A stretch of 64,000 nt of DNA from Porphyridium purpureum. Its lineage: Eukaryota. Below, in pieces: positions 9,668-54,661 of this stretch. The notes beneath the pieces are model-generated. The model worked only from the letters and a program-made list of their open reading frames with translations. It did not search any database and was not told the origin of the DNA. The position numbers and the translations under genes were made by a program. Each line of letters starts with the position of its first letter. The stretch's first letter is position 1. The DNA is taken from assembly GCA_008690995.1 (NCBI GenBank), contig VRMN01000004.1:620001-684000 (forward strand), written 5' to 3'.

Positions 9668-11323
9668 TTAATCATCACCGCTCTTGGCGCCTTTCGCCAA
9701 ATTGCATTCCGCGTGAACCAACTGAGCGTTCTCGGCGTTCGTTGGCCCACCCTTGCTATGTGGTATAATGTGGTCGATATGCACATAGCCGGGCTCATTG
9801 AAGCGCGCCTCGTCCATGAATTGCTTGCATATTCCGCACAATCCGTTCTGGCTCTCAGAGAGCTTCCGAACGAATACCGGCCGGTTTGCGGAGGTGTCGG
9901 AGATGCTGGAAAAAGACCGGATGGGATCCAATGGCGGGGTAGAATTGGAAATCGCATCATTGACGATTCGCTTGAACTCATCGCGTCGAGCGATGAAGAA
10001 CGCAGTCCTCCTTTTTCCGTCGAGATCTCCTAAGGCCTCATTCTCGTAACTCTTCTGGATGCCCTGAATCATAGAACTCTTTGCCGCCGTGAACTGAGCC
10101 GATTTGTACAACCTAATGAGATCGATCATTGCAGCCACGCCCGCATCCCACAGCAAAAGATTGACAGAAGTCTCCCACTCATATTCTCCACCTCGGAGCT
10201 TCTTCCACCTCCTGAAGGCGTGTCGTCCAAACACGTTGCGCGAGATTTCCATCACTTTTTCAAAATCAGATCGCTTTCTGATCAGCTGGTCTGCCTTTTG
10301 CTTGTCGTTCTTTCCCTCCAGTTCTTCGTCCGTAAATCCTATGAGCTCTTCGTTCATCAGCTGATGCAGCCTCATGTCCCGTTTCTGAGTCCCGCTCTCC
10401 GTGAACGCAAGGGCACGAAGAATGAGCTGGCGATCTGCCTCCTTTCGACACGGCTTGTACGTTCGGTTTTCTACTGCTGTCGGGTCGCGAATCGCGTGAA
10501 AGTCCGTGCAAGTGTTTGCCACCTCATCAAGCATTCTGATGTATGGCCCATAGAAGAACGCGCGGCGCACCTGCTGCTCGTTCATTTTTTCTCCGCCGCT
10601 GTTGATGTCATTGTAAACATCAAACACTTCCTGCATCGGGGTACCGTACGGAATAATGGAGACGGTGATCTGGAAATTCTTGAACATGCGTCTTCGATCT
10701 TCACTCAAACCTAGGAAGGATATGCCGTTCAGGTTCTCGTAGTCATCGGAAAGCTTCTGAAGATACTCAAGCCGCGGCAGCACCGCATCGAATCTTTCGC
10801 GCCATTTGGGCGGCCGGCCGGGACCAATGTAGCGCTTCTGACCGTTCAACATGAACCCAAGCAAGGTGCACAGGCGCTGCTTACCATCCACACAGTCGTA
10901 TTTGCCCCTGGCTCTTTCGTGCAGCAACACTTGCGGAATCATCCGATTGCACAACGCCGTCACAATCAGGCGCGACGCCGTTTGCTCTTTCCACACATAG
11001 TCGCGTTGGTAGTCTGGAAAGAGATTCAGCTCATTTTCTTTCACTTTCTCCAAAAACATTCCCAGTTGCCAATTCTGAGCGCCTTGCCCTGAGCGCAGAC
11101 GATCCCCGCTGTCCAGTTTGACCAGTTCGCCCTCCCACAGATCTTCATCTGTCGCCACGCAACACATTGGGATTCCTCTGGCCCGCGATGACGCCCGCGA
11201 GGTCGGCGTCATCTGTTTCAGCGGGACACATTTCTGAACCCCATCTCGCCTCACGACCTGCACATGAGTGTTGGCCACAGCCCACCCGCACGCTGAATCG
11301 AGGCTTGCGGTCTTGACCAGCAT
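9668..11323 (-). CDS. DUF262 (ParB/Srx-like NTPase) plus C-terminal HNH endonuclease, GmrSD-like, with an N-terminal extension
   Basis: DUF262 motifs PDYQRDYVW, VDGKQRL, YNDINSGG. HNH motif CGIC...HIDHIIPHSKGG.T...NAQLVHAECNLAKG. ATG at 11323. Confidence 0.85.
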   Translation of the reverse strand: MLVKTASLDSACGWAVANTHVQVVRRDGVQKCVPLKQMTPTSRASSRARGIPMCCVATDEDLWEGELVKLDSGDRLRSGQGAQNWQLGMFLEKVKENELNLFPDYQRDYVWKEQTASRLIVTALCNRMIPQVLLHERARGKYDCVDGKQRLCTLLGFMLNGQKRYIGPGRPPKWRERFDAVLPRLEYLQKLSDDYENLNGISFLGLSEDRRRMFKNFQITVSIIPYGTPMQEVFDVYNDINSGGEKMNEQQVRRAFFYGPYIRMLDEVANTCTDFHAIRDPTAVENRTYKPCRKEADRQLILRALAFTESGTQKRDMRLHQLMNEELIGFTDEELEGKNDKQKADQLIRKRSDFEKVMEISRNVFGRHAFRRWKKLRGGEYEWETSVNLLLWDAGVAAMIDLIRLYKSAQFTAAKSSMIQGIQKSYENEALGDLDGKRRTAFFIARRDEFKRIVNDAISNSTPPLDPIRSFSSISDTSANRPVFVRKLSESQNGLCGICKQFMDEARFNEPGYVHIDHIIPHSKGGPTNAENAQLVHAECNLAKGAKSGDD

Positions 11324-13256: not shown

Positions 13257-14270
13257 TCAGTCACGCTGGAGCCCAGAGGACATGTTACTCTGCGATCTGT
13301 ACTTCTGGTTGTACAGTTCCGATTCCTCGTGCGTTAAAAGCCCGTCACGGTCGAGATCTCTCTGATCAAAGGCACGTAACAGATCATCGACATCTCCCCT
13401 TTCGATCTTTTGCAAATGAAGCAGCATGCTGACCACAAACTCAAATCGACGAAGTGCGTTATCTTGGTCCAAATCCATCATTTTGAATCCTTGCCGAGTG
13501 AACGCCTTGCTTAGGAGCGCCTTGCGCGCCTTGCGCTCAGAGCGCGCCGCAAAGGCAGATGTGTAGTCACCAACGAGCTTACCCAGGCTGATTGTCATGA
13601 ACACAATCCAAAAAACAGAAACTGTCTGCATGACCGCATGTCTCGGGTGAAAGTCGCCCAAACCCACGGTGCTCGCGGTGATTATAACAAAGTAGATCGC
13701 GTCCACGAAGCCCATGCCGTCGCCAAAGTGAAACATGATGACAGACAGGAAAATCAGCCCCACAAAGAACGCCGTGGATGCTACTAAATGGTGCTGCTCG
13801 GCCTTGGTCAATCGATCAGTGGCTGTTGCGTCACTTATATCCTGCGAGTTATGATCTGCCACATTCTGCACAAGCTTGCCTAAATTGGAGTCGATCAAGT
13901 TCTCGACCAGAAGCGATAAAAAGCTGAACACAAAGCCAACGGAAAGGCAGATGTACAAGCATGTGAACAGTTTTGACAGGTCGGATGAAGGTGTGATGTC
14001 GCCATATCCCACGGTGGTCAGCACGACCACGCAGAAATACGCGCTTGCCTCGAGGGACCAATTCTCATAAAAGTGGAAAAAGCACGTTCCAACCACAAAA
14101 TGCGCGCACACCAGGACTACCAGCAGCCAATTCTTACCCAAAGTGCTCACCCACACCGGCGTCGTTCGCATCTGCTCCAACTTTGCCGACGACTTCTCGC
14201 CGTCATCCTCCATTCCCGCTGCGCTGGCCGCCGGCGCCAGCAGCGGCGCGGACTCTTCCACAAATGCCAT
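13257..14270 (-). CDS. TPK: Two-pore K+ channel (TPK/KCO type) with C-terminal EF-hands
   Basis: Four TM segments and two pore loops (TTVGYGD, STVGLGD). EF-hand loops DLDQDNALRRFE and DLDRDGLLTHEE. Confidence 0.9.
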   Translation of the reverse strand: MAFVEESAPLLAPAASAAGMEDDGEKSSAKLEQMRTTPVWVSTLGKNWLLVVLVCAHFVVGTCFFHFYENWSLEASAYFCVVVLTTVGYGDITPSSDLSKLFTCLYICLSVGFVFSFLSLLVENLIDSNLGKLVQNVADHNSQDISDATATDRLTKAEQHHLVASTAFFVGLIFLSVIMFHFGDGMGFVDAIYFVIITASTVGLGDFHPRHAVMQTVSVFWIVFMTISLGKLVGDYTSAFAARSERKARKALLSKAFTRQGFKMMDLDQDNALRRFEFVVSMLLHLQKIERGDVDDLLRAFDQRDLDRDGLLTHEESELYNQKYRSQSNMSSGLQRD

Positions 14271-15566: not shown

Positions 15567-17357
15567 CTACTGCTTGAAGCTCATCGAGTACGATCCTGTC
15601 GTGGGATCCTGTTGTAAATTGAAGTTGTCCAGGCTGAGTCCAAACTTACCCAACAATGAGTTGCCTAGATCTTTCAGCTGGCTCATGGCCTGCGCCATAT
15701 CCTTTTCGTCCTTATCCTTACAGAGCTGTGCTAGTCTTGCCACCTCAGAGGCCGATATGGATGTCGCATCTAGCTCTCGCATCTTGCGAGCGGCTTCCAA
15801 TGCCTGGCCAAGCTGACCGTCAAGCTCACAGGCCATCTTCAGTCGCGCATAGCCCTTGACGTACGTGGCTTCAAGATGCACTGAACGTTTGGCATCCTGA
15901 AGGGCCTCCTTTGGGCGCAAGTTCGGACTGTCTTTACCCTCCTCTGTACGCAGCAGCGTTGCAGCACGATTTGCGTATAAGACGGCTCGTGTAGTGCTTG
16001 TCAAGCACGTGCATCGCAGTGCCATTGAATATTTTCTGCGAGCATCACTGAACGCATTGCGCGTAAACGACTCGTTGCCTTGTTTCTTAAGTTCCATGGC
16101 TGCATCCTCATCCACTTCGCCAGCAAGGATTAAAGGTACAAACCTTACTTCGGTCACAGAGCTTCCAAAAGCCTTGTCCAAAAGTCGTTTGAGAGACTGG
16201 CTCACTTGGCGTGTAGAAAACATAACGTAGGGCCGTTGCATGTTTTCATTCACGACCAAGCCAAGCAAGTTGTCCAGAACTTGCACGGCATCATCTCGGT
16301 ACGGATTCCGGGCATCGTCATCGTCATCCTCGGGCACGCGTCCGGGAGCCGGGACGTGAGGACTTGCCTGTCGAGCGAGAATTTCGTCCACGTTCGAGAA
16401 TGCAATCGAAAAGATTGCCTGAGGAAAGATCTTTCCATATTCAAGGAGTCGCAACAGGACAATTGGAGCAGTCACCAGCACATCTGGAAGCACCAGGTCG
16501 TCATCATCATCCAGGAATACTTCTGCGTCTTCTTCTCCCATCTTTGCAACATGAAGGCCTTCTGTGTCCGCCAGTAGGTGCCGCAACGTTTGAGCGCTCG
16601 CATTAATGTCTTGGTACGTGTTTGTGAGGAGCACGGAGCACTTGTGTTCAGAGCATCCTTTTGCGTCCCTCTGACGTTCTGATACTCGCTGCCAGAGCAA
16701 CGTAAACAGCAGACAGCCGATAGACTTGCCCGAACCTGTCGGAGCACATACGACCAGGGTTTTCAACAAACTCGGCAACGAAAAGGTGCCACTCTCTCCT
16801 TTTTCAGTCGATGGTGCGGGTTCGCTGGCACTGAGCTTGACAAAGTTGAGCACCAGCTTTTGCACCGGATTGAGGTCAGTGATATCTAGATCTATCCATG
16901 GAGCCACACGTACATTCGCTAATCCCGACATCTCTGCAAATACCGTTTCGAGTGATATCCTGTCCGACACACCAGCCAACAATTCCTTCGTGAGTGTTGT
17001 CCTCTGTTGAACACTTTGCCGCAAGGCAGTATCGTTATTGAAGATGACATCCATTAGCTGCTGCTGCGACACTGGAAGCGCTTCGACAGAAGGCTGCAGA
17101 TCATACAAAAGCTCATCCGGCTCCAAATCATGCTGCAACCAGTCATCCTGATCAGCCTCGTCCATCTCACTCGCGCCGGCGTCATTCATTGTCGCGCCGT
17201 GGCCTTCGTCCGGAGCCTGACTGCCAGGCGCCTCCAACTCCTCGTCCGACGACCACGAATCGGATTGGGCTCCAAGTGAGTCCGAGGACGACGACTGGGC
17301 CTTTTCATCGAGGTCCTCGACAAACGCCTTTGCGTGCGGAGCGGGCGCATTCTCCAT
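15567..17357 (-). CDS. Fusion of a degenerate DEAD-box RecA1 domain with a TTC1-like TPR domain
   Basis: APTGSGKS Walker A, DVLVTAP and MFST. TPR motifs LKKQGNESF...A...YS.AL, LYANRAA, YVKGYAR. TTC1-type tail LKDLGNSLLGKFGLSLDNFNLQQDPTTGSYSMSF. Confidence 0.75.
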   Translation of the reverse strand: MENAPAPHAKAFVEDLDEKAQSSSSDSLGAQSDSWSSDEELEAPGSQAPDEGHGATMNDAGASEMDEADQDDWLQHDLEPDELLYDLQPSVEALPVSQQQLMDVIFNNDTALRQSVQQRTTLTKELLAGVSDRISLETVFAEMSGLANVRVAPWIDLDITDLNPVQKLVLNFVKLSASEPAPSTEKGESGTFSLPSLLKTLVVCAPTGSGKSIGCLLFTLLWQRVSERQRDAKGCSEHKCSVLLTNTYQDINASAQTLRHLLADTEGLHVAKMGEEDAEVFLDDDDDLVLPDVLVTAPIVLLRLLEYGKIFPQAIFSIAFSNVDEILARQASPHVPAPGRVPEDDDDDARNPYRDDAVQVLDNLLGLVVNENMQRPYVMFSTRQVSQSLKRLLDKAFGSSVTEVRFVPLILAGEVDEDAAMELKKQGNESFTRNAFSDARRKYSMALRCTCLTSTTRAVLYANRAATLLRTEEGKDSPNLRPKEALQDAKRSVHLEATYVKGYARLKMACELDGQLGQALEAARKMRELDATSISASEVARLAQLCKDKDEKDMAQAMSQLKDLGNSLLGKFGLSLDNFNLQQDPTTGSYSMSFKQ

Positions 17358-17994
17358 GGCGATTTTTTGTTGTGAACACACAGAATTCAAGCCGCTGTCA
17401 TCACCGCCGCCGCCAACCACCACCACCACGACGACAGTCGCAGGAGCACGGCGCAAGGAACCGCGACGTCAACTTCCAACGACGACGCCGAGCCGCCTCC
17501 GCACACGTCTCGCGCACGCGAGAAAAGTCCGCTGAGAAAAGTACCGCACGGTACAGTGAATGTTGCTCACACTGTACTTTAGGGTTGACGCGGGATGCCC
17601 TGCCGTTTACAGCGCTCCGGAGGTAGCACGTGCGGCCGCTCTCTCTGTCTCTCGCTCTCTTCATGCGCAATCGGTGTTCGTTGGAGACGGTATGAGCTGA
17701 ACCATCGTGTCATGAAAGAGATAGCACGCAAAAGCTTGCCAAAGTCGGTTATCATGACCCGCTTGGCAGACAGAACAGGGCAGGAGAAAAAAAATTTAAA
17801 AAAAATTATCAATAAAATGGGCATGCTCGCAGGAAAACTGAGAAAAGTCGCGCTGTGGAAAAAAAAAGGTTTCACTTCGATGACTAAAGTTAAGTCGGCG
17901 AAAACAAAGTTGCGTGCCAAGACGATCTTCAAATTGCACACACAACAAACCCACTGCCTTCACACGACTGTCGATTGTACAATGACGGAGGCTA

Positions 17995-20900
17995 TCAATT
18001 CATGACCCTGCTCAACGCGTCAAACGCGAAGAAGGCGGCGCCTACTTTGTATGATTCGTGTTCGGACGCCCGCGTAGGAAGGCGGCGCAAGGTTGCTCCT
18101 CGCGCAAGAGTGCCTTGCGGGCCAAACGTACCAATCCGGTGGCTGGCCAGTCGAGAGCCGTGCGACGCTTCCAAATCAACGACCGTATGTTCGCTGGACC
18201 CGCCACTTTGCCAGGTGCTGGAACCTGAGACACTCTGAACTTCTCCAGCAAGACCCGAGCTGCGGCCAGCACCAGCCCCTGTTCCCGCGCCTCCTTTCGA
18301 GCGGGCGCTGACTTGGCCCTTGTCCAAGGCCTTTGTCTCGGCGAAGCTGTCCAACAGCACTGCGCGCTCTTCAATGTTCGTGCCGTGTATGCCTGCATAA
18401 ACCAGTGCCACCGTGAGATACAAGAGATTAAAGACAAACAAGCCTACAAAGAAGCCAGCGTACCCAGTCAAGTCCCCGATAAACTTGAGAGCGCTGTAGC
18501 TGGGAATCGTATTGAGCTCAACGGTATTATTGGCGCCAAAGTTGCCGCTCGTCGACCCGAACTTCAGGCGCGCACGCATGTATGCTTGCTGCGTGCTCTG
18601 TTCGAACACCCCCAGATCATGTGACGTGACACGATACCCGTAACGTGTGTTGTTATCAATGCTGCTTATGCCGAGCAGGATTTCAACCTGCGTATTGGGC
18701 GACTCGGTGGCTACCTGTTCCAAACGCTGAATACCAGTCCAAACGCCTGTACCTGACGGTTGCTCCATCAAGATACTCACCGAGTTGGAGAACGATTGAT
18801 TTGCAACACGATACGCGTCCCATGGATTGCTGCCTTCAATGGTGTAATTCCCGGCACCATTTTTGACAACCACAAAGTCTGCCTCAGAATCGGTCGGATA
18901 AATCACGCCACTGAAATATACCAATGAACAGAGCGCGTCGTCGTTGAATCCTTCAAACTCGCTCAAAGGCGAGCCGTCATCGATGCGAATTTTACCCGCA
19001 TCTAGTAGCTGATTCCGGCGCTGCATCAGAATCTGCTCCTGGTATGGATGTGAGTCTGCCAGAATCCTACCAAAGCCGGCGCCGTTCATGCAAGGCGTGT
19101 AGAGCGCGTCCGTAAAAAAATCAACAAAGATATCCGGCACTGGCTCGTCCTCAGCGACCGTTTCGTTGAACCACACACGGTAGCACACTCTGCAATCGTT
19201 TTGCGCATTTGCCGGGTCGATCGCAATGGTTGCCGCCGCCGCAGAACCGTCGCCGGCACAGCTGCTACCATTTGCCACGCGAGACACCTTATTGGCACCC
19301 CAGATCGGTCCAAAGATGACTTGGTCTGCGGTGGGCGCGAGAGAGTAACTGAACTCTCCGCGCCCGGCACGCGCAAACCCGAACATGGGCGTGCCGTCAT
19401 CAAGAATCTGAACGCCATTGTTTGTCCCATTGCGGTCTTGGCAAACCATAAGAGGAGGCAACGGCAGCGGGGCGCGCGGCAGTGTGTTGAAATTATACGC
19501 AAGTAGGTTGGGACTGTTGATGTAGAATGCGATAAGAAAGCCTGACGCAACCGCGGCACCTATGAACAAAATCAGAAGCAGTGTCAAGAGACCAATAAAA
19601 GCCCACTTGGATACCTGCTTGGCCAGCACTTGCTCCTCTTCCTCGACATTCGCAGTCGCAGATGCATCGATATTGGCACTGTTTCTCTTTCTCAGGCTCA
19701 GCCAAGCCACCAAAGGCGGAAGCAAGTAAAAGAAAATCCCAAAGACGCTCAAACCTGACAGGTTGCCGAGGACTGCGGCAACATCTTGCGTAAACTCCAG
19801 GTTTGAATATCTGTACACCATCGAAACCATTTCAAACAGCTGCGAATTGAAGGAAAACCCGATTTGGACTGAGAGGGCGCTATTCGTTCCCGACCAGCCG
19901 TCCAAGAACCGATCCCGCACACTTTCTCGAGTTTCAATTTGCGTCACCAGATCGGGAGCAAGCACAATGGAGGACGCCCCATTCTCCTGCTTGATATCCA
20001 CATCCGTTGTTTGAGCAAAGGAGACGTGCAGATCGCTGCTCATGGGCACGATGCCGCTAAGCTGAACATCTGATAAGTTGGCAGACAGTGCAGTGAACAT
20101 CTCAACCTGCTGGAAAACATCCACACGTGGAAGCGGAAAATGGCGCGGCGTTTGCGCGGACCCATACTCGAGTTTCAGGTTACTCTCATTCACAAAGGAA
20201 AACAACGGCGGCCCTAGTCCCGGCTCTGGCAATACATTAGCACTTCCTTCGACAGGGAAAACGGCCCCCGAAGTGAAGATGAGATCGCACAGCGCAAAAG
20301 CATTTGAGACCATATCTGCCTGGACCCTGAACTGTTCCGAAAATGGAGGCCTTGCCTGAGAGCTCGAACTTGAACTGCTGCTTCCGATAATGCCGCCTTC
20401 TGCCAGGGCGTCCCAATTGTCCACTACCCACTCCCAGGTTGGCGCCGCGGAGCAGCATAGCTCGCACGACGCAAAGCAGCAAGCGAATACATTATTCCAG
20501 AGGAAGCTGACAGTCAATTTGTCTCCTAGGCTGGCCGCCGAGACGTTGTTCGCAGCGCGCTCAAACATGTAGCACGTCTGGCATACCGTGTTTCCGGCTG
20601 ATAAGTCCAGCGCTGCTGTCAGATCACTCGGAAAGCTGGGCGCGCCAAGAGAGCCGCAGCCAAGCGATTCACCAAGCTGCTCATACTCATCATCCCCTCC
20701 TCCAAGTTCCAGAAAATGAAATTCCTCTACGTTCACAAAGAAGCCTCGCCGCAGAACACTTTTGGCCTCCTGGCCACACCGCGCCTGGCCCCCGAAAGTC
20801 ACACAATCTACATCATACGGCACAGACGGCGCATTCGTGGCAAGCGGCGAGAGCGGTGCGCCAGTGTTGGGCAATGCTTTGAGCTGCTCAGTGCCCCAAG

Positions 20901-22800
20901 CAGGCATACCCGGGCGCGTACAGAAAATGACTGTCGGCATGACGAATTCTTCAGCAGGAATGGTTTGATACTCTACAGCAAGCACAGGTTCCTGCGAAAA
21001 ATATTGCACAAACAGTATGACCAGAAGCACCACCGACGTAACGAGCAACGAAATAAAGACGAAAAGGTACCAAACCGCAACCTTTTCGTCCCTTGATATA
21101 TCTCCACTTCCATCTCGGTCCACATAACGCATAATCCACTCTTTTGCCGGATGGCCTTGGATCTGCTGGGTGACAACGGTCTGGTCGTCCGAAGGCTTTT
21201 TGCTCCATTTGGCGCACTGATCATGTAGCCAAACACAAGCCTCTGTGGCAAATATGATCATGGCGAAAATCGTCGTCCCGCTGAAAAGCGAGATCCAGCC
21301 GAATGCGTCCAGGAACCAGTTCAGTGCGGTGTCCGGGTATACCAAGGACACGGAAAAAATCACATCACCTATGTACGCAAATTCTGTCTTGGCTGTAAAC
21401 CAGTTGAACGTGTTGACAGTCGAGAGTTCATGCCGCACAATGCGACCCTCGCGAATTGGCGGGTCTCCAGGCTCCGTGGCTTCCCTTTCCTGCCTGAAAC
21501 GGAAGACAGCGATCTGCCCGACGGATGCCGTGCCGCGAAGATCCAGCTGGGGCATAAAAGATCCGTTCGCGAACGTCTCGCGAGCAACAAACACTTGCAT
21601 ATGATCCACTCGCTGACTCGCGCTTTCGATATATTTGTACAGGTTCTGGTCTTGTGCTCCCGACCGTGACCATTCAAACGTGTCTGCATCGACAAGTGTA
21701 AACCTTGCCGGAGTAAAAGGCTCCGTTACCGGATAAAGTTTGCCGCTGTACAAGACAAGCTCGCACAGAAAGTCCTTGGGCATAACAGTAAGAAACGGGG
21801 CGAATTGGCCCGAGCTGTCGGCATCCAGCGTACGCAGGAAATCGCGTGGCGCATTTACGATGATCCCATCGTCCACCAACTCTCCCCACAGCGCGTCAAC
21901 AAAGGCAAACGCAAGCGCGTTCGACATGAGGTCAGGAATCCCGCTAGCGCTTTGGTTTGCCTCCTCGGAAAGGAAACATTGACTGAGGGGGTTGATCTCC
22001 ATGTGGATTTGGAAAGCGTCTTCCAAGTCGTCCGACTTGGGTGCGCCTTCAAAAGAAGCACAAAACCGACACGCATCCAGTTCGGCGCGGTAAGTGGCCA
22101 TGTCAAACGGCAGGCTCTTGCTGAACAGCTCGGCACAGCGTTCCGCGCTCACAGAGTCTGGCAAGGTAGATTTCCAGTATTGCCGCAAGAATTTGTTGCA
22201 TTGGTTGTCACAGTTGTCTCCGCAGACGTCATCCTTGCGCTGAACGCATTTGAACAAACCTCCCGACGCTGTGGAAGGAAGTTCTGACGTAGGATAATTG
22301 CTACTCCTGAGCGGTTCAATGCGCTCAATGGGCGGAACGTTGGAGAGGGCATAAGGCATACACAGCTCCGAAGTGGGCATAACAAACTCTTCCAATGTCG
22401 GATACGGCGCAACCTCGACCTCGAAAACCGGTTCCTGGTGAATATATTGGTGTGTGATGAAAGTGAACGGGACGAGTGCGCCAAGAAATGCGACGAGCTT
22501 GAGCAGAGCTAATGTTCGTCTCAATCCAAACGCGCGCTTCTCCTTCGTACGAAATGTGCGGGAGCGCAACGCGGGACCCTCATCGCGCAGGTTCTGCTGC
22601 ACAAAATCTGGCTGCTGAGCGGACCGCAGGCTGTCTCCCGTGGGAAGAGTCGCACGTGAATCGGGCGCGGCCTGCAGCGCGGCTCTTAGTTTGTCGGCAC
22701 TGTCCGACGCCTCTGCAAACGCGACGCCCTTGGCTGTTCGGGATCCATCTGTTTTCGACGCCTTTGCCAACCCATCTTTTTCTTGCACTACCTGACCCAT
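17995..22800 (-). CDS. 1601-aa membrane protein with three tandem DEG/ENaC-like (TM1-ectodomain-TM2) repeats and an EF-hand
   Basis: Six hydrophobic segments in three pairs. Post-TM1 motifs FVMPTSELC, FVMPTVIFC, LPLPPLMVC. TM2 motifs DAFGWISLFSGTTIF, DVAAVLGNLSGLSVF, DLTGYAGFFVGLFVF. EF loop DRDGSGDISRDE. Confidence 0.75.
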   Translation of the reverse strand: MGQVVQEKDGLAKASKTDGSRTAKGVAFAEASDSADKLRAALQAAPDSRATLPTGDSLRSAQQPDFVQQNLRDEGPALRSRTFRTKEKRAFGLRRTLALLKLVAFLGALVPFTFITHQYIHQEPVFEVEVAPYPTLEEFVMPTSELCMPYALSNVPPIERIEPLRSSNYPTSELPSTASGGLFKCVQRKDDVCGDNCDNQCNKFLRQYWKSTLPDSVSAERCAELFSKSLPFDMATYRAELDACRFCASFEGAPKSDDLEDAFQIHMEINPLSQCFLSEEANQSASGIPDLMSNALAFAFVDALWGELVDDGIIVNAPRDFLRTLDADSSGQFAPFLTVMPKDFLCELVLYSGKLYPVTEPFTPARFTLVDADTFEWSRSGAQDQNLYKYIESASQRVDHMQVFVARETFANGSFMPQLDLRGTASVGQIAVFRFRQEREATEPGDPPIREGRIVRHELSTVNTFNWFTAKTEFAYIGDVIFSVSLVYPDTALNWFLDAFGWISLFSGTTIFAMIIFATEACVWLHDQCAKWSKKPSDDQTVVTQQIQGHPAKEWIMRYVDRDGSGDISRDEKVAVWYLFVFISLLVTSVVLLVILFVQYFSQEPVLAVEYQTIPAEEFVMPTVIFCTRPGMPAWGTEQLKALPNTGAPLSPLATNAPSVPYDVDCVTFGGQARCGQEAKSVLRRGFFVNVEEFHFLELGGGDDEYEQLGESLGCGSLGAPSFPSDLTAALDLSAGNTVCQTCYMFERAANNVSAASLGDKLTVSFLWNNVFACCFASCELCCSAAPTWEWVVDNWDALAEGGIIGSSSSSSSSQARPPFSEQFRVQADMVSNAFALCDLIFTSGAVFPVEGSANVLPEPGLGPPLFSFVNESNLKLEYGSAQTPRHFPLPRVDVFQQVEMFTALSANLSDVQLSGIVPMSSDLHVSFAQTTDVDIKQENGASSIVLAPDLVTQIETRESVRDRFLDGWSGTNSALSVQIGFSFNSQLFEMVSMVYRYSNLEFTQDVAAVLGNLSGLSVFGIFFYLLPPLVAWLSLRKRNSANIDASATANVEEEEQVLAKQVSKWAFIGLLTLLLILFIGAAVASGFLIAFYINSPNLLAYNFNTLPRAPLPLPPLMVCQDRNGTNNGVQILDDGTPMFGFARAGRGEFSYSLAPTADQVIFGPIWGANKVSRVANGSSCAGDGSAAAATIAIDPANAQNDCRVCYRVWFNETVAEDEPVPDIFVDFFTDALYTPCMNGAGFGRILADSHPYQEQILMQRRNQLLDAGKIRIDDGSPLSEFEGFNDDALCSLVYFSGVIYPTDSEADFVVVKNGAGNYTIEGSNPWDAYRVANQSFSNSVSILMEQPSGTGVWTGIQRLEQVATESPNTQVEILLGISSIDNNTRYGYRVTSHDLGVFEQSTQQAYMRARLKFGSTSGNFGANNTVELNTIPSYSALKFIGDLTGYAGFFVGLFVFNLLYLTVALVYAGIHGTNIEERAVLLDSFAETKALDKGQVSARSKGGAGTGAGAGRSSGLAGEVQSVSGSSTWQSGGSSEHTVVDLEASHGSRLASHRIGTFGPQGTLARGATLRRLPTRASEHESYKVGAAFFAFDALSRVMN

Positions 22801-23102
22801 CGCGGCGGTGCTGCTCCTTGAGCTGCGCGTGGTTCCCGAGCTACTTTTTCATGTCACCCAACCCTCAGACCCAATAGCCGCTCCTGCGCGTCGAGACCTT
22901 TCCCCTTTCAACGCGGCGCGTACTTGGGCGATTGTCACCTCAAATCTCGGTTACCACCCGCCAACCCACGCACCACTTGTGCGCGGCGCAGTCACGACCT
23001 GCTCCCTCTGAATTCACGCGCAAATCGGCCAACACCCAGCGCACATCTGTAGCGTCGCTCCACATAGCCACCGCTGTGCAAGTGCGAGCGTGTCTGTCTG
23101 TC

Positions 23103-23132
23103 TGTGTGTGTGTGTGTGTTTGCGTGTGTGTG
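23103..23132. repeat. (TG)n microsatellite
   Basis: Imperfect TG run in the intergenic region. Confidence 0.85.
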
Positions 23133-24609
23133 CGATCCGACACGTGTCGCCATGATCGAAGCTCTGTGGCCTGTTCACGGCGCTTTCAATCACTCCGAAT
23201 GACCGCTCCGCACTCACAACACGCTTCGTTCAGCCGCGCGCCTCTCCGGCAACAAAACACGCTTCGAAAATATCCACGCGTGGCACAAAACGCTCCATAT
23301 CAAAATAACACAAAGTAATGATATTTTGAGCGAGCGCGCGCAACACGGCGCGGCGCTTTGGACCGAATCCAAAACGGTTCAGTGGCGAGTTTTGTCCATG
23401 CCACACAAGAACAGCTGCGCGCGCACACTGTGGAAGGCACGCGCGCGCGCCGCAGGGAAGAATGCGCATGGTAGTGGACGCTCTGGGAAAGCGCACGGAC
23501 GGGTGGCGCCACTGGAGCAGTGCGGCCTGTACGTGGCTTGCGTGCGGTCGGGTTTGCTGTCTGGAATTGGAATCTGGTCGCGAGATCGTTGCAAAAGAGC
23601 GTGCTGGCCAACTACTGTGTAGGAATCTCCGCAGCGGAAGCGTTAAAAGACAAAAGAGAATTGGGTGTGGGCGCTTGCGGCAGAGCACGGCCTTCGCTGT
23701 GCGTGCGTGCTGGAGTGCCCCGGTCTGACGCCCGCGTTCGCGAGGCTAGAAGGGACGTGGTTCTGTTCCACTCAGCCGCATCGGCAGCTGGTATGGAAGC
23801 GAGTCTACACGGTTTGCCGAGAGGCCAAAGTAAAAGCCTGCTGAGGAATAAATTCCTTCAGCTCATGGCGCTCAAACGATCTGGCCGCTCAGAGAAAGCT
23901 TTCACTGTCACAATCCCACCACTCTTTTCCAGATATATACAGTGCACGGGCACGGAAAAGCCTGTGGCTCGAGACGGCATGGGCGAACGGGCTCAATGTA
24001 GACCACTCCCTGCTGCAATACGAGCCGAGCAGGGTGCCACCCGTCATGGCCATCATGTACATGGACTGCTTGAAAGACCGCTGTCGTAACGAGTATGATA
24101 AAGCCAGTCACAAGCGTTTCCTCTTGCGAATCGGTGAGGAAGCGTGCGTCTCCTCGCAGTCACGCCATCTCGGAGTCCTTCTATTTGCAGACTAAAGGCT
24201 CAGAGCTTGCCAATCGGTGGAGCGTTCGACTGAGCAGCGCTGCAGCTCTACCCGACACTTCCGAGTCCAACCTTGATGCCGTGAACGCCTCCGCGCCTCG
24301 TCACGCGCGCGCGTGCTCATGGGCACAAGTACAGTGCGTGCGCTGCGGAGGTTGCGAAAATGGGCTCCACGCGCGCGCGCGAGGTTGAAGGCGACGAGCG
24401 CGTGGTATCTCGGGCGTCTGCGTGGACGAGGACAGCGTGCGTGCGTGCGTGCGTGCGTGCAAGCGCGCGCGCGCGTGTGTCTCCAAGTCGAAGCGATGAT
24501 CTCGCGGTCCGTTAGCTGTTGTTGGGTTTGCGCAGGACCAGTCAAGGTATGCGATGGTGCGGTGTGGTGGCTGCGGCGCAGGAGACGGCGGCGCTTCGTG
24601 CGTGTGTGC

Positions 24610-27600
24610 ATGGCGCGGAGCACGGAGAGGTCCGCGTGGGCATCGACGCAGCGGTTGAAGATCGATGCTGCGTGCTCCGGGTCGGTGAGCGTGTTTAGGC
24701 TGCAGCATTGCCGTGCAGGACAGTTCAGGGTGACGGCGTGTGCAAGGGAAGCGGTAGTTCGCTCCGCTCGTGTGCGCGCGATGAGCATGGCAAAGCACGC
24801 ACCGGAGCGTCGTGAGCACGGCAATAGACCGTCACGAAGCGCAGACAGCAAGACGCGGCGCGAATTTGTGCTACATTCATTCGCAGCGGTACTGGGACTG
24901 ATCGCGTACACGCCGGTGCTGGACCGGCCTGATCCTAGTGAGACTATGAGGAGACCTCCACTCGGCTTGCGCACGAAGGACTTGAAAGAAGATATTCTGG
25001 AAGACATGGACACGGAAACGGAACGCCAATTGAATGGTGATAAATCTGGTGATGACGCGCCTCCAATCGGCAGCGAGGTCGACAAGGCAGACAAACCATC
25101 GTCAAGCGAGGGCAACTTTTCCGCAGGATCATCATCCGGTGCACCACCGTCCACCCGCACGCAGGAACTGCGGCGTGGGCCCTCGCGAAAAGACGAGCTG
25201 GACGAACTTGTGGAGATGGCAGGTAAGCCGTTTGTGCTGAATCCGCGGTGGATGGAGGATGATTTGGAAGACGCCAAGGCTGTGTTTCGGCGACTCGCAG
25301 TGCTGGGCTTTGTCGCGCTGTACAGTCTTACTGCGATTCTGATCTCCGAGCGGTCCGAAGGCCGCATCACGCTGCCTCGGCAGTATGACGTGGAGCAAAT
25401 TCGCAACTACTTTCGGCCACGACCGGAACTTGTGCTTGTGCGCACGTGCCAGATTCTGTGGGAGGCAGTCGGCTTCGGCACAGGTTTTGTGAGTGACAAG
25501 CTGTGGTATGAGCTACGACGCAGATTTGATGAATTTTTCATCGAGAACCTAGAAACGCGGCTCAAGCGGCTCGAGGCGGAGGACCAGAAGCTTAATGTAC
25601 GCGCCTTTGCGTGGAATACAATGCAGGTGAGCCTGATATCCGGAGCGCGAAAGGTATTTCGCGTGAAGCAGCCAAGTGTAGGTCAATATTGGGACTGGCG
25701 TTGGAGTCGCCGCGCCGCACTGAATAGGCAGGCAATTACACGACTTGGTCCGGCGTTCATCAAGCTTGGCCAGGCAATTTCGAGTCGGCCAGACGTTGTG
25801 GGCTCGCGCATGAGCCGCGAGCTGCAACGGTTGCAGGACGACATGCCATTTTTCTCGAACGAGGAAGCATTTGAATTTATTCGACGCGAAGTCGGGGCCC
25901 ACCCGCGCCGCCTCTTCGAGTCGATCTCGCAGCAGCCTGTCGCAGCAGCGTCGATCGGGCAGGTGTACAAGGCGAAATTGGACGGTATTGATGTTGCCGT
26001 CAAAATCCAGCGCCCGGGCATTGTCGAAGTCGTCGCTCTAGACTTCCATGTCATTCGCAACGTGGCCGAATTTGCCACCAGTGTGTTTCCGTTTTCTACG
26101 TTGGTGCCGCCGGATCTGTGTGATATTGTAGACGACTATGCATCGCGCCTATTCGAGGAACTCGACTACGTGCAAGAAGGAAGGAATGTGGAGCGTTTTC
26201 GTGAATTGTATGGAAATTATCCAGGCTTCAAGGTGCCCATGCTCTTTCAACAATACTCGTCTGAGCACGTACTAATCATGGAGTGGATTGACGGAACTCC
26301 ATTGATCAGTGAAGATTACAATTATGGATTGTCCGCATCAGGATCCGTGTCGACGGAAAGCAAAGCCCTAGATTCATATTCGAAACTTGTGTCGGTGGCC
26401 GATAATGATCTCGTCAGAATTGAGAACGGAATTCGATGTTGTCTCGCACAATTGCTTGACGTGGGCTTCGTGCATGGTGACCCGTCTGAGAATCTCATCC
26501 GAACGCGAGATGGCAAGCTTGCACTGGTTGATTATGGTGTTGTGGTTTCCATGGCACCGGCAAGCAGGTATGCCATCGTTTCTTCGCTTCTGCATCTGCT
26601 GAATCGGCAGTATGACTTATTGGCGGAGGATGTCTCCAGTGTGAGCATCATGAAAGACTCCGCACTTGACATGCGCTACGATGAACTCGCCAAAGCGCTG
26701 CGCACCGTGTTTGAGCCTTACGTAGGCGACGGCATTTCGGGCTTTTCCTTCATTGGGCTTGCGGATCAGTTCTTGACGCTAGCGTCTCGATTCCCTTTTG
26801 CGTTCCCGCCATTCTTTATCAACAACATTCGCGCTCTTGGTAATATGGAAGACATGGCGTTGCAGGTCGACCCCAACTTCAAGATGGCCAAGCTGGTATT
26901 TCCGCTTGTGATCGAAAAGGTGTTTAATGACCCGGCGCCAGAAATGCGTGAGACCCTGGAGGAAATTCTGTTGGCCGATTACACCTTCATTAATTGGAAA
27001 GACCTCCAGCGTATTATCACCCAAATGGCGTACATACGCTTAAATAATACCGTGCTCTTGAGCGACACCGCCAATGCTAGACTTGTGTCTGCAATGTCCG
27101 GGGCGCCTTCGCCGGCGCCGTCGACGGGCGGCGCTAGTGTTGGAAGTGGCGCAGATGTGTCCGCCGATGTGGTGGGTGGTGCTGGAAGGCGCAGACAAGA
27201 GAGGAGAAAGAGAAAGCGAAACAGCCGAGCAGGTTCGCTATCCGCCAGCGACAAGATGCTGGACGCGGCCTCAAAGAAGGCCGAAATGTTCGAGTTTCAG
27301 ACCTTCACGGAGCTAGTTTGTTCCCGCAACGGGAGCATGCTCACCACCGTGTACGCGCGCCAGGTGGTAGACATATTCGAGAACCAACTGGAGGCCAAGG
27401 TGAATGCAATTGAATCGTTCTTGCTTCCGCGCAATCTCCAGCCAGTCAAGGCACGCGCGCACAGCCTAGACAGAAGCCCCGCTGACGGCGCAAAGGGAGT
27501 CCGTCGCAAGATAAACTCAGCACCGAGCAGCGTTCCCGAAGGTGACCGCACTTCTCCTTTAGAGGACTCGAGCGCTTTGCCAACGACGGAGCACTCTCTT

Positions 27601-49370: not shown

Positions 49371-50600
49371 GGCTGACGGAGCGCGTGGGTGCGACCTGTA
49401 CATTCTCCATGAACTGTACTCAAGGAGGTAGAGTGAAATGATAAACCGATAAACCGAATCTGACGTTATGGAGCATGAATGCATGCTGACGAAGGGGCAA
49501 GGGAGGAGGAGCATGGAGGACGCCGGTATTCCTACGCTCAAGGAAGTCTATGCACTGCTCTCCGATGAGCATGCATGCATACAGTTCCTTATGAGTATCG
49601 GTGTGCTTGCGGCAAAAGTGCGTTGTCCTGCGGTGGGTTGCTCGGCGGAGATGCGCGAGATTCAGGTAAAGTGTGCATTCAGGTGCAAGAGAAAGGCTTG
49701 CCAGCAGTTTGTATCACTTCGATCTACAAATTCGTTCTTCTCTGCCCATAAAAATCTTGCTTTTCACGATGTCTTGTTTTGTGTTTTTCTTTGGCTCCAC
49801 TGTCTTTGTGCCACGCAGATTTCAGAGTTGACTGGACTCGCGAGGAGCTCAGTGCGCAGCATTCTCGTGCATGTACGCCAGTGCATGGTCGAGTACAATG
49901 CTATGCATGAGGCTCCCATTGGTGGCCAGGATGTTATAGTCGAAATCGACGAAAGCAAGTTTGGGAAGCGCAAGTACCATCGAGGACATCGCGTTGATGG
50001 GGTATGGGTGCTTGCCGGAGTGGAACGAACTGAAGAACGCCGTCTCTTCATGACAGTGGTGCCCAACCGGACAACGCGCACTTTAATTCCCATCATACAG
50101 CAGCGTGTGCACCCGGGCTCCATTATACATACGGATTGCTGGAAGTCGTACTTCATTTTGAAGTACCATCCGACACTCAGACACTATACCGTAAACCATG
50201 AAATGCACTTCAAGGATCCGGTTACGGGAGTGCACACGAATACAGTGGAAGGAACTTGGCGGGCCGTGAAAGCAACCATGCCTGATTCTGCTTATGATGG
50301 AAATCGTGTGAACCTTTATTTGGAGGAGTTCATATGGCGGCGTATCAACCACGGACGCGTTTGGGAAGCATTCATGCGTGTGCTTAAGTGGTGGCGCACC
50401 GAAAACCGCCAATTCAAATCGGTTTGACTCAGAGGTACAGTACGTTCCGTTGCTTGCTACAAAATAATCTAATTTTGTTGGACAGTTCCATTCTACTATA
50501 AAAGAATGTGTTCTATATATAAGCGTGATTCTATCACATTTGCGCTTTTTGATAGGATTCGAGGAGGAGGTACAGGTCGCACTCCGGCGCTCCGTCAGCC
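49371..50600 (+). mobile_element. Merlin (IS1595/ISXO2-like) DNA transposon, 1230 bp
   Basis: 31-bp TIRs starting GGCTGACGGAGCGC (3 mismatches). 9-bp TSD CGCTTCAAC at 49362-49370 and 50601-50609. Confidence 0.93.
49468..50427 (+). CDS. Merlin/IS1595-family DDE transposase
   Basis: N-terminal Zn-ribbon-like Cys cluster, VEIDESKFGKRKYHRG, IHTDCWKSY, VNH, HTNTVEGTW, YLEEFIWR. Confidence 0.93.
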   Translation: MEHECMLTKGQGRRSMEDAGIPTLKEVYALLSDEHACIQFLMSIGVLAAKVRCPAVGCSAEMREIQVKCAFRCKRKACQQFVSLRSTNSFFSAHKNLAFHDVLFCVFLWLHCLCATQISELTGLARSSVRSILVHVRQCMVEYNAMHEAPIGGQDVIVEIDESKFGKRKYHRGHRVDGVWVLAGVERTEERRLFMTVVPNRTTRTLIPIIQQRVHPGSIIHTDCWKSYFILKYHPTLRHYTVNHEMHFKDPVTGVHTNTVEGTWRAVKATMPDSAYDGNRVNLYLEEFIWRRINHGRVWEAFMRVLKWWRTENRQFKSV

Positions 50601-53503
50601 CGCTTCAACCTGCAGACCAGAACACCGTTCTTGACGAACTGCTTCATGCGCTTGTCTACGGCGGCGAGCAGCCCGGTCAGGTTTCTGTTGATCCTTACGT
50701 ACGTGTGTGGGTCGCTGTCGGGGATGCTTGCGTTGAGAAATGCCCCGGGGAAATCAATCGTGGCGACTGCGGCACCGCTTCTCGCTGCCTCGGCTGCCAG
50801 TAAGAAAATAGCCTCGGTCGCCACCGTGGGGGACGAACAGTCGGAGTACTCCGATCGATCTTGCTCGTTCCCGCCGGCCACCATTCGTGCTTTGATTTTC
50901 TCCAAGGCGCCTGAAGCATCGTGCTTCTCCTTCACGAACATGAACGACGGTATGATCCCGTCTCGTTGTTTCTTCGTGAGCGTGTGCACGTGGACCGGCT
51001 CCAGCACGTCCAGACCGTGCTTGGACAGCTGCAACAGCTCAGCGACAATCGCCTTGAGTCCTTCCATACCGTATTGGCGTATCGCCTGGCGTACGCCGAT
51101 CCTCAGCGTTTTGTGTCTGCGCTTTCCCGGCATCGCAGAAGATAGCAAGTCCTCCGCCTCTCGTTTCAGGGCGACCACGACCTCCGGCGCGCGCCGTACA
51201 CGCAGGCGTTCCTTCTCGCGGCGCGATAGCCGCTCATTCTTTTCGCGCTCGACGTCCGGGAATGTCCCTTCTGCTTTCCGCTTCCGTGTCCGACGCGGAG
51301 AGCTGACGGCGCGGGCATGCTCGGCTTCGCTCGTGCGCGGTACCGCATTTCGGACGGCGTCCGCGTACGATGGCTCCGTGGTCATCTGACTCAGCAGACG
51401 CGCCTCACGTTCCTCCAGCGCTCGCAGCTTCTCTTCAATTGCTTCCACCCGCGCTTTGGCCTGTTCCATTGTCACCTCGGCGACCGAGGGGGTCAAGGCC
51501 GCTTCGCCGTCTGAAGCGTCCGGACTGGTGATTGTGGCGTCGCCGTGCGGCCGTGCGGCAGTAGCGGGTGGATCAGTCGACGCCTCTTCCTCGGGCACAT
51601 GGGTTTCCACAGATTCTGCCACGATAAGCGGCTCCGGCAGTACTGCGTCCGTGCTTGGCAGACCCTCGCCGGTCGCTTCCGCAATCGCTGGCGTCATTGC
51701 TCGCCCCGCCTCGAAGAGTGAATCCGCTGCACGTCGCATCTCTTCCATGCGCAACTGCGTGGGAGTGGACGGTGACTCATCCTTACTCAGCACGTCGGCG
51801 CCCGCCGGTGCGGGGTGATCGGTGTCGGCGTGTGTCGGAGTCTGCGCCTGTTCACGCAGTACCGCGTCTTCTGGCTGGTCCAGATACGTGTGCCCCTCCG
51901 CCGCTGGCTCGTCGACCGGCCCGCCGTTTTTCAGCGCCGCCTCGACCTCCGCCGTCTCTTTGTCTTCCTCCTGCGAGAGTTCCACCTCCGTGCGGCCGAG
52001 GTCCTGATCGCCATCGTCGATGCCTGCCACGGTTGGGAGCGCATTTACGTACGTGATCAGGTGGTCCGGTACCGGGAGCTCTGTCCACACCTGTCTGACG
52101 ATGGGCTTCAGTGTGTTCAGATTCATGAGCACCCAGCTTCCCGCAGCATTCTCGGCGGAATGCAGGGTGAGGCAGCCCAACGTTCTGGGCCTCATCGTGC
52201 TGTCCACGGACGCTGTATGTGCCTGGACATACGCCCCGAATGGAGCACGTAGGTCCGTCTTCGCGTCTACTTTACGACCAAAGTAGATGGCGTGCGCCGG
52301 TTCGCCCGCGTCGGAGGCCTCGCTCGTCACCATGTTCAGTCTCTGTCGAGAGAACTCCACGGCTCCCGGCAGCATGCATAATGGCATGGTGTACGGCAGG
52401 TCGTACGACAATGTGCGGACCCTTTCCTTTAGAAGGCGAATCGCTCGCTCAGCGGCGGGCACCACCTCGTCTGCCGCGGTTAGCTCGGGCAGGATGCCGG
52501 CCTCCATCAACTCGATCCAGAGCGACAGGACTGCGCTTTCACGGTCGAACCGAATCTCAGGTATCTGCACTCCATGCCCGCGGGCCTCGTTCAACCGCCG
52601 CTGCACCGCCGCGCGCACCGAAGGCACGTCCTTCCGCTTCAGCTCGGTGGCCAGGATGTATTGACTCGGTTTCAAGACCGACACGAGGAAAGGCACCTTC
52701 GAGATGAACATCAGGTCGGAGTGCATCACCTGGCGCGCTTTGGGACCAGTGGCGACCGCTTCAGACAGCCTCGGTGTCGCGTGTCCCGTTGTCTTTCCCT
52801 TCACACACGGCAGTGGAGTACCCCAGATTGCATTCGCACGCTCGAGGTCCGCCGACGTGACGTCACAGTTGCTTATGTCCCCGCGCTGAAGCATGCGCTT
52901 CAGCACACCAAAGGATGGGAATCCCAGCCTCGCCTGCAGAGAGCGAGCGGCGCGTGCGCGTTCAACCTCGCGTACCGTGCATCGGGCAAGGTTGCTGGCG
53001 ACCGTCGTGATTGTGCTTGAGGTCCAAGCCTTGGCAGACGATGGACCGGCCCGGCAGCTGTTCCGGTTGTCCTTATTCGTGGCTGCCTTCTTGTATGCTG
53101 GGCCCGTCGTGTGCACGAGATCTGCACGCCGTATCATCGCAGTGTACATTCCGTGTGCATCGGGCGCGAAGACCAGCCAGCGCTTGGAGTTCGGCACGCG
53201 TACGCGGAAGCGGTTCTCATCCGCGTCGAAGCGTACATCATGCCCTTCCGCGACCAGCTTGGTCATAGACAGCACGTTGCCTGCAAGGTTCTCGTTGACG
53301 TACGCCATGCCGAAGGCCGTCTCACCGCCGTGCCCGATGGCCAGCTCGCTCGCCCGCGCGTCAATTCCGGACAGCAGCAAATACTCGTCAATTTTCTTTA
53401 CCCGATGGACTAACCCCTTATCCTTCATGACGTGAACACCCGAGCAGGTGTCGAGACCCAAAGGTATCTCGTCACCGAAGCCCGTGGGCCACGTCGCACA
53501 CCG
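50601..53503 (-). CDS. Copia pol, N-terminal part (protease, integrase, start of RT)
   Basis: Protease LDTCSG; integrase HSDLMF, RFDRE, AERAIRLLKE; RT KARMVAGG, DFPGAF, CRLKR. Same frame as gag, directly after the gag stop. Confidence 0.9.
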
Positions 53504-54613
53504 TCATGCATCGGCGTTCCTTTTCAACGCGTCAAGTGCGGCCCGCAGCTGTTGCTCCGTCGCCCCGGCCAGCACCGGCCCGCGTCCGCGCGTGTCGCGC
53601 CTCGCCATGCGCGCCTGCCTCTCCTTCGCCGCGCGCATCCTATCGGCCATTCCGCTGTCCAGCGGTCGCGCGTGGCAGTCGCGAAGGAGATGATCATCCG
53701 CGCCGCAGTTGTAGCATTCGCGTACGCGTGGTGCTGCTGCGAGCTCCACATCATCTGTGTCCTCGTCTTCTGGGTGTTCGGTGTCCGTCCGCCAAGTGCG
53801 ACCCTGTACCGGTTGTTTCGCGTACGCGAACTGCGCCATGAAAGACATTGCCTGGTCGACCGTGTCGAACCGTCGGTGCTCGTTGTTGCACTTGCGTACG
53901 GCTTCGTCCCAGCGCGTACCTTCAAGCTTTAGGATAAAGTCAGCCGCGCAGCGCTCGGAAGACGGCACTGGTTCGCCCACGGCTTCAAGGGCCATCACCG
54001 CTGCCTTGAAGCGCGTCTTGAACGAAACAAGTGATTCGTCTGCTCCAACTCTCAGTTGATCGTACGACATGCGAGCATACTGCTGGTTACGCAGCGGGTC
54101 GTCGTAGCCACGGGTCAGGTGCGCCTCGATCACGCGCTCGAGAAGCTGCAGCGGATCGTCCGATTCTCGTACGAGTTGACTCCAGCCGGGCTTTACGGCC
54201 AGCGCTTCCTTAGATGCGCGGCTCAGTTGGCCCATGATGAGTCCAAACACGCGCACGCGAGTTTCCTTGTCCTTGCGTATCGCGTCCGAGCGCGCCGCAA
54301 GCGCCAGCTTGAGCTCTTCCTTGGCGACGGTGGCGCTGTACCAATCCTCCCGTCCCGCCTCCCCGAGCCCTGGGGTTGCTTGCGGGATCGTCGGCAAGGT
54401 GGGGTACACGCGTCCTTGGCGCTCTATCGCAAACGCTGTGCCGATAGCGCCGTATTCCTTCTTGCAGTAGTTGCCGAGCTCCTCGACCCAAACTACCACC
54501 GCGGCCGGCACCACACGCGTGCTGTCGTAAGTGAGCAGCGGAAGTGTCTCTACAAGACCGGCTTCGCGTGGGTGCGGCGAACGGCCTGCGCCGCTTTGTC
54601 CGACACGTGACAT
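53504..54613 (-). CDS. Copia gag with a CCHC zinc knuckle
   Basis: 369-aa ORF just inside the 5' LTR, containing CYNCGADDHLLRDC. Confidence 0.9.
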   Translation of the reverse strand: MSRVGQSGAGRSPHPREAGLVETLPLLTYDSTRVVPAAVVVWVEELGNYCKKEYGAIGTAFAIERQGRVYPTLPTIPQATPGLGEAGREDWYSATVAKEELKLALAARSDAIRKDKETRVRVFGLIMGQLSRASKEALAVKPGWSQLVRESDDPLQLLERVIEAHLTRGYDDPLRNQQYARMSYDQLRVGADESLVSFKTRFKAAVMALEAVGEPVPSSERCAADFILKLEGTRWDEAVRKCNNEHRRFDTVDQAMSFMAQFAYAKQPVQGRTWRTDTEHPEDEDTDDVELAAAPRVRECYNCGADDHLLRDCHARPLDSGMADRMRAAKERQARMARRDTRGRGPVLAGATEQQLRAALDALKRNADA

Positions 54614-54646
54614 TCTCGTTTGTCACCGGTGTCGCAGACTCTCAGA

Positions 54647-54661
54647 TTTTCTTGGAGCGTG
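54647..54661 (-). other. Primer-binding-site position, complementary to the element's own LTR (54802-54816)
   Basis: Minus strand CACGCTCCAAGAAAA abuts the LTR end. It is the exact reverse complement of TTTTCTTGGAGCGTG inside the LTR. Confidence 0.75.

Follow-up and report, generated by a model that had tools for sequence, protein, structure and literature searches.

A Probable Single-Chain Pseudo-Heterotrimeric Channel of DEG/ENaC-Like Type in the Red Alga Porphyridium purpureum

Introduction

Can a trimeric ion channel occur naturally as a single polypeptide? This question is raised by a gene of the red alga Porphyridium purpureum (Rhodophyta, Porphyridiaceae) that lies at 17995–22800 on the minus strand of a 64-kb window, i.e. 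the whole stretch of DNA that was analysed and to which all positions refer. An earlier note made from the sequence had proposed that it encodes three channel subunits of DEG/ENaC/ASIC type in one chain. Among other channels, four-repeat Nav and Cav versus tetrameric Kv as well as two-repeat TPC and K2P illustrate how tandem duplication fixes the order of subunits and permits an asymmetric pore. Yet these channels have an unrelated fold and comprise two or four repeats rather than three; if the proposal is true, the algal gene would be to trimeric channels what the transition from Kv to Nav/Cav is to tetrameric ones.

Outside animals, DEG/ENaC channels are reported only from heterokonts and a filasterean relative in one survey, whose BLASTp searches included Rhodophyta and whose named candidates are restricted to holozoans, a single alveolate and a single stramenopile (PMC10507113). 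The same source leaves open whether the family is of ancient or lateral origin (PMC10507113). An extension of the fold to red algae would bear on this choice between ancient presence in eukaryotes and sideways transfer. The literature matches listed here, obtained with partly broad queries and including few subscription papers, contain no natural multi-repeat and no red-algal DEG/ENaC or PAC channel, in line with the earlier remark that no natural example had been described. As discussed below, the gene probably encodes a single-chain, pseudo-heterotrimeric, DEG/ENaC-like cation channel that would be weakly selective, tuned by calcium and translated from one transcribed frame.

Architecture of the Gene and Its Units

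The frame comprises 1601 codons without internal stops, and residues 90–1485 of its translation (P0001) are identical to P. purpureum FVE85_2888, which is annotated as a hypothetical protein. Its hydropathy profile displays six segments peaking within residues 92–117, 499–525, 572–604, 1006–1037, 1061–1096 and 1444–1473, and a seventh, weak hydrophobic window at 830–848 (peak 1.53) that falls inside an ectodomain. Accordingly, all three units consist of two TM helices around a large ectodomain. TM2 positions are given below in prime notation, in ASIC numbering. Unit 1 (aa 94–529; 21214–22521, minus strand), delimited by the unit HMM and alignment, combines TM1 and a Cys-bearing ectodomain with a TM2 harboring D498 (0′), G508 (10′) and T510 (12′). 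The corresponding TM2 residues are D1006, G1016 and S1018 in unit 2 (aa 575–1035; 19696–21078, minus strand; unit HMM and Pfam) and D1443, G1453 and F1455 in unit 3 (aa 1069–1473; 18382–19596, minus strand; unit HMM and structure search). As each unit has two TM helices, both linkers would be cytosolic, judging from the family topology. Linker 1 carries an EF-hand-type loop found by pattern match (aa 561–572; 21085–21120, minus strand) that runs into TM1 of unit 2, while alignment and pattern match define linker 2 (33 aa; 19597–19695, minus strand) as devoid of a second such loop. A low-complexity, presumably cytosolic tail of 128 aa (17998–18381, minus strand), placed by alignment, ends in a short hydrophobic motif.

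The previously proposed reading as one 1601-aa frame with three two-TM units is in agreement with the open frame, the hydropathy profile and shuffle tests, and the unit ranges suggested then match the HMM units. The units are homologous to each other, since local alignment scores exceeded 300 of 300 shuffles for every pair (z 17.8, 5.0 and 7.1). They share only 14–20% identity, and blastn between different units gave a best E of 0.18, which rules out a collapsed or duplicated assembly. Five cysteines are conserved in all 17 units of the family and a sixth in 14 of them. The three motifs highlighted earlier after TM1 (MPTSELC, MPTVIFC and LPPLMVC) indeed fall into one shared block of alignment columns. 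Sequons are concentrated in the ectodomains (12 of 13 in P0001, where ectodomains make up 70% of the length, and 39 of 51 over four three-unit proteins), an enrichment that is too weak and was therefore not used for topology.

Two short motifs outside the units are conserved in all four three-unit proteins: the C-terminal hydrophobic motif (17998–18050, minus strand), which persists despite variable tails and is possibly an inner-mouth helix, and, ahead of the first TM helix, an Arg...Ser/Thr-Phe motif (22540–22570, minus strand), possibly a kinase site.

Relationship to DEG/ENaC and PAC

On the sequence level, the family assignment proposed earlier is borne out in part. The Pfam ASC model scores the full protein at E 0.0036 and 16.8 bits, below its cut-off of 23.6, with a weak match on unit 2 and no score for units 1 and 3 in isolation. 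Nevertheless, four of nine family proteins pass this cut-off, i.e. P0003 (30.5, with three ASC stretches), P0011 (27.8), P0005 (26.0) and P0009 (24.7); P0006 reaches 15.1, and P0004, P0010 and P0012 have no match. A family profile retrieved 14 matches from the PDB, the top four of which are DEG/ENaC channels (PPK26 and BRTNaC1, E 0.002–0.004). These alignments run through the post-TM1 motif and then the last strand plus TM2, in this order, and comprise only these two ends; further profile searches gave a similar picture. No PAC chain appeared among the PDB matches up to E 10, and phmmer with P0001 against the PDB gave only ABCA3 (E 2.7). In a language-model atlas, P0011 is placed with ASC clusters (0.92; 28 of 30 matches), and the first match of unit 2 is likewise ASC (0.81), which may serve as a lead only.

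DEG/ENaC channels carry the consensus FPxVTxC after TM1. Proline and cysteine of the corresponding P-x-x-x-x-C motif keep their register in all 17 units and align to the motif of PPK26 and BRTNaC1. The gapless TM2 block that the earlier note had seen relative to ASIC is recovered as well, as TM2 of unit 2 in the family profile aligns to ASIC2 387–450 (E 0.73). Hence, P0001 resembles DEG/ENaC channels (PF00858; ASIC1a, ENaC, FaNaC, PPK26, BRTNaC1) in its two TM helices, large ectodomain, P-x-x-x-x-C, Asp0′ and Gly10′, but differs from them by three units per chain, an EF-hand loop at the site of the HG re-entrant loop, the lack of E18′ and D21′ and cysteines at other places. Instead of a cysteine-rich thumb shortly before TM2, the three units have their last ectodomain cysteine about 150 residues before TM2. 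In this respect they differ from the ASC member P0007, and the region in question is unalignable. Thus, fold and sequence signals speak for a protein of DEG/ENaC type, whereas the HG motif, E18′/D21′ and the pre-TM2 cysteine cluster are absent, and owing to these missing canonical marks the protein is best described as DEG/ENaC-like, outside canonical membership.

The structural comparison is based on AlphaFold models of low confidence (pLDDT 58.5 and pTM 0.46 for a single-unit model; pLDDT 46.8 and pTM 0.36 for a longer model of aa 286–1485). The single-unit model gave no Foldseek match at E≤0.001, with PAC (TMEM206, ASOR) as the best at 0.14. In a comparison with 48,161 chains, PAC ranked first (Z 8.1, 237 residues aligned, rmsd 8.6) and was the only one among the best 50 chains that aligned over more than 100 residues. 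A second-look search yielded PAC or DEG/ENaC chains in 35 of 50 matches listed, with 177–251 residues aligned. The longer model, whose alignments cover unit 3 only, produced 41 Foldseek matches at E≤0.001; all 37 listed are PAC (17) or ASIC (20, including one generically titled match that we take to be ASIC). Similarly, all 50 VIA matches listed for this model are PAC (15) or DEG/ENaC (35) chains, all on unit 3. The best PAC match of unit 3 (Foldseek E 6e-6, target TM-score 0.5, Z 11.5, rmsd 7.6, 242 residues aligned) is followed by ASIC1 (Foldseek E 1.5e-4) and ENaC (Z 10.2) as the best DEG/ENaC matches. Full-length rmsd values amount to 7–15 Å, while unit 3 superposes on the ENaC ectodomain with 3.2 Å over 146 residues and the beta core with 3.2–3.8 Å over 146–164 residues. 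For P2X3, the alignment was limited to 80 residues (Z 5.0).

Although no similarity is visible between their sequences, PAC and DEG/ENaC channels possess a common 12-strand core (PMC7904269), and this core between two TM helices is found in the structure matches of unit 3. The structure and sequence signals therefore agree with each other: the modelled core is nearer to PAC, and the sequence points to DEG/ENaC. Taken together, the units very probably adopt the DEG/ENaC–PAC fold according to these models. The earlier expectation that modelled repeats would resemble ASIC, ENaC or related channels thus holds for unit 3, which matches ASIC, ENaC and PAC, whereas homology is the basis for assigning units 1 and 2; a lack of DEG/ENaC-like structure did not emerge from the unit 3 model. 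While PAC is the closest structural match, it exhibits no sequence match up to E 10 to P0001, which has a larger ectodomain with six conserved cysteines and lacks the TM2 lysine of PAC. In addition, PAC assembles from three identical but separate chains. Intermediate between the two families, with DEG/ENaC nearer in sequence and PAC nearer in the modelled core, the algal protein may help to settle whether both descend from one ancestor.

Pore Residues and Ion Selectivity

The ASIC pore is marked by Asp433, the GAS belt, the HG motif, Glu451 and Asp454 (PMC10148893). The equivalent of Asp433 of chicken ASIC1, Asp0′, is present in all three units of P0001 and in 14 of the 17 family units, with Asn in three unit-1 relatives, and Gly10′ occurs in 17 of 17. 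At the GAS position 12′, unit 1 has Thr and unit 2 Ser in all four three-unit proteins, while unit 3 has Ala in three and, in P0001, Phe, a bulky residue at a pore-facing site. Positions 6′/7′ are likewise fixed according to the place of a unit in the chain (S/L, G/N and G/F in units 1, 2 and 3 of four out of four proteins), the pattern to be expected of three distinct faces around a common pore. E18′ and D21′ occur in none of the 17 units, and HG before TM1 in none of the 12 repeats; among the four single-unit relatives that allow this test, one contains HG close to TM1. Basic residues at TM2 positions 1′–21′ (ASIC numbering) are absent from all 17 units, and this argues against an anion filter of the PAC type. 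An outer ring of acids, with none further in, suggests a pore that passes cations with low selectivity. On balance, these residues lean toward a flow of cations rather than anions, without strict sodium selectivity.

Conceivably, the protein could instead be a single-chain pseudo-trimer that works like PAC, i.e. as a proton-activated anion channel, perhaps of endomembranes. PAC ranked above every DEG/ENaC chain among the matches listed in five of five structure searches (best E 6e-6; Z 11.5 versus 10.2), and the acids of the DEG/ENaC sodium filter are missing. Such a function appears improbable, however, as PAC depends on its TM2 lysine (PMC7904269), whereas the algal units combine the lack of any basic residue at 1′–21′ with an acidic 0′ ring, and none of the 14 sequence matches is PAC. 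Moreover, PAC approximates the bare shared core, so that a poorly modelled periphery would presumably place it first regardless.

Relatives and Origin of the Three-Unit Form

A three-unit profile searched against 1.84 billion representatives gave 13 matches, comprising P0001, three further long proteins (1e-49 to 1e-73), five single-unit relatives (P0006, P0009, P0010, P0011 and P0012), three ordinary members or fragments of the ASC family (P0007, P0008 and P0014) and one false match, P0013, which consists of RCC1 repeats and was discarded. The clusters of two of the three long relatives are paralogues from the transcriptome of Timspurckia oligopyrenoides, the remaining one being P0004. This homologue survey, which the earlier note had suggested, thus revealed the same three-unit layout in three other proteins. 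All four full-length long proteins have exactly three units, and two or four units never occur among the 13 matches; P0005 and P0015 are partial copies. In the data searched, the three-unit form is represented by three organisms at most. Word-index searches retrieved no homologues beyond the protein itself, two metagenome scans no loci of relatives, and the 64-kb window contains no P. purpureum paralogues. The single-unit relatives align with the unit profile from one end to the other (hhalign 99.1%), and repeat identity between lineages is 26–45%. An N-terminal extension of 120–170 residues, partly alignable, occurs in P0006, P0009, P0010 and P0011 but in no three-unit protein.

A tree of 17 units was calculated without an outgroup, leaving out P0007, P0008 and P0014 and using P0016 and P0017 in place of P0003 and P0005, P0005 being truncated and P0003 having the same tail as P0017. 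The units cluster by position in the chain (support 100/99, 99/96 and 100/100), with units 1 and 2 as sisters (99/98) and the same branching within each position, and a grouping of the three P0001 units with each other is rejected (AU p 1e-38). Hence, the triplication is old and happened once. An ancestral single-unit gene may have undergone two tandem duplications, the first separating unit 3 from units 1/2 and the second unit 1 from unit 2, an order that is only inferred as the tree has three long end branches and no outgroup. Both duplications would predate the split of Porphyridium and Timspurckia, and would have fixed the order of the subunits and left each face of the pore free to specialize.

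Transcription of the Locus

Eight of 24 listed sequencing runs were compared with the locus, i.e. three stranded raw-read runs (one study, 150-base reads) and five contig runs. In the former, RNA reads from the expected strand are found in each bin of the frame, and no splice joint across it is listed in any of the eight. Single contigs span the whole frame in two of the five contig runs, namely X2 (RNA library; 17819–23079) and X15 (library kind not recorded; 17936–23204). In X1 and X6 the frame is covered by overlapping contig pieces, and the contigs of X5 leave a gap at 22463–22595. The contig ends fall near the gene ends, as is typical of transcripts, and the transcript extends approximately over 17800–23200 (minus strand), with candidate 3′ ends at 17875 and 17923. 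The gene is thus real, expressed and conserved. That it is a single gene, as claimed earlier, is sustained by stranded reads, whole-frame contigs and the lack of joints, and neither a transcription of separate units nor an assembly artefact came to light, as the units are unlike in DNA and the same fusion exists in three other proteins.

One base at about 22844 is absent from seven of the eight runs and is a probable assembly error upstream of the ATG. Since without this base an ATG at 22852 comes into frame, the protein would be 17 residues longer, and translation probably starts there, 17 codons earlier than called. The error may also explain the odd database gene model of 1644 aa with a different 43-residue extension, for which the three raw-read runs show no splice joint (depth 4–6 there). 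Many sites in 16500–23000 display two alleles near 50:50 (X21–X23), as in a diploid or a mixed culture.

Assembly within One Chain

Three units per chain equal the stoichiometry of the trimeric ASIC/ENaC (PMC10148893) and PAC channels (PMC7904269). The closest precedent is artificial: engineered ASIC1a concatemers likewise string three subunits together, head to tail, within a single chain and function like the wild type (PMC8871370), which renders a single-chain topology workable. Unlike the identical units of these constructs, those of P0001 are natural and merely 14–20% identical. Based on repeat count, topology and position-specific conservation, we infer that the three TM2 helices of one chain likely line one common pore.

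Alternatively, the units could assemble between chains, or separate subunits could be freed by shorter transcripts or proteolysis, in which case the fusion would merely ensure co-expression. The single-unit relatives prove that one unit can be a whole gene, and read depth drops toward the 5′ end, being roughly ten times lower in unit 1 than in unit 3, which fits a 3′ bias and equally internal starts. Small clusters of read ends within the frame (19203, 20278, 20422 and 21307; 5–7 molecules each) also speak for this scenario, but none recurs between runs or falls within a linker, and joints are missing in eight of eight runs. Furthermore, the 33-residue linker presumably leaves little room for three separate pores, and exactly three units were retained at 26–45% identity between lineages, so that this scenario is unlikely.

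Slightly less probable still is a channel-derived receptor or scaffold with a shut pore, in which the ectodomains would sense and the EF-hand loop and tail would signal. It would account for the loss of HG, E18′ and D21′ and for Phe12′ in unit 3 of P0001, and at least 18 allele differences listed within the frame (7 synonymous, 11 nonsynonymous, no stop), which give no selection signal, mostly change a residue. However, the relatives have Ala rather than Phe at this position, and TM2 ranks among the most strongly conserved blocks, with an invariant Gly10′ and small residues at 3′ and 6′ in 12 of 12 units. Finally, an artefact of assembly or gene calling that fused three tandem paralogues, to which the probable error of one base shortly before the ATG might point as a sign of an imperfect assembly, is refuted for practical purposes by the one open frame, the dissimilarity of the units in DNA, the contigs X2 and X15 and the same fusion in three other proteins, two of them from the Timspurckia transcriptome.

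EF-Hand Linkers and Proposed Mechanism

The earlier note had overlooked the EF-hand loops in the linkers, which vary from 33 to 102 aa. The pattern D-x-D-x-D/S-G-x-I/V-S/T-x-x-E/D, 12 residues between helices, occurs in linker 1 of all four three-unit proteins, directly before TM1 of unit 2, and in linker 2 of three of them, P0001 being the exception; it is absent from the five single-unit relatives. P0001 has lost the second loop, and the lone loop may be unable to bind calcium. Linker 1 matches Pfam EF-hand_1 below the cut-off (E 0.076) and is modelled as helix-loop-helix with pLDDT <50. Since the loop occupies the place of the HG re-entrant loop of animal channels, calcium could act directly on TM1. 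From this sequence pattern, regulation by cytosolic calcium through the linker has about an even chance.

For the favored single-chain pseudo-trimer, the following mechanism can be envisaged. The chain would close into one ring of three units with pseudo-three-fold symmetry. A complex prediction for units 1 and 2 (score 0.01, alignment unused, partner fold uncertain) counts neither way in this respect, and the 1200-residue model of aa 286–1485 gave no packing readout. An external or luminal cue, the opening stimulus probably acting on the ectodomains, would then move these large, disulfide-bonded domains, the TM2 bundle would open and cations would enter, while cytosolic calcium might modulate opening through linker 1. 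Luminal or external pH is a tentative candidate for the stimulus by analogy, given that both structural neighbors include proton-gated channels. Somewhat more likely than not, the gene represents the first natural single-chain channel of the DEG/ENaC–PAC fold. It would then belong to a red-algal lineage beyond the sequence reach of the surveys published so far, in which two tandem duplications produced a pseudo-heterotrimer with three distinct pore faces, EF-hand loops at the HG site and putative direct calcium gating at the inner mouth. As P. purpureum is transformable (PMC6110788), this natural heterotrimer of fixed order would make mutations in a single face of a pore directly testable.

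Genomic Surroundings

Divergent from the channel gene, a short transcript spans about 23440–24260 (plus strand; depth up to 43). It contains only ORFs below 100 aa and has no Rfam match, and neither does any other part of 16500–25000. Three genes downstream of the channel gene, a two-pore-domain potassium channel gene (13257–14270, minus strand; Ion_trans_2 E 8e-29) has weak EF-hand matches; its proximity is probably due to chance in a gene-dense genome. The gene at 9668–11323 (minus strand) combines GmrSD N-terminal and HNH nuclease domains, an arrangement of bacterial restriction type within a nuclear gene of an alga, possibly acquired by lateral transfer. A mobile-element cluster at 49468–56099 comprises an ISXO2/IS1595-like transposase domain (49468–50427), a weak match to a copia-type RT (50534–53428) and a Tc3/mariner transposase (55086–56099).
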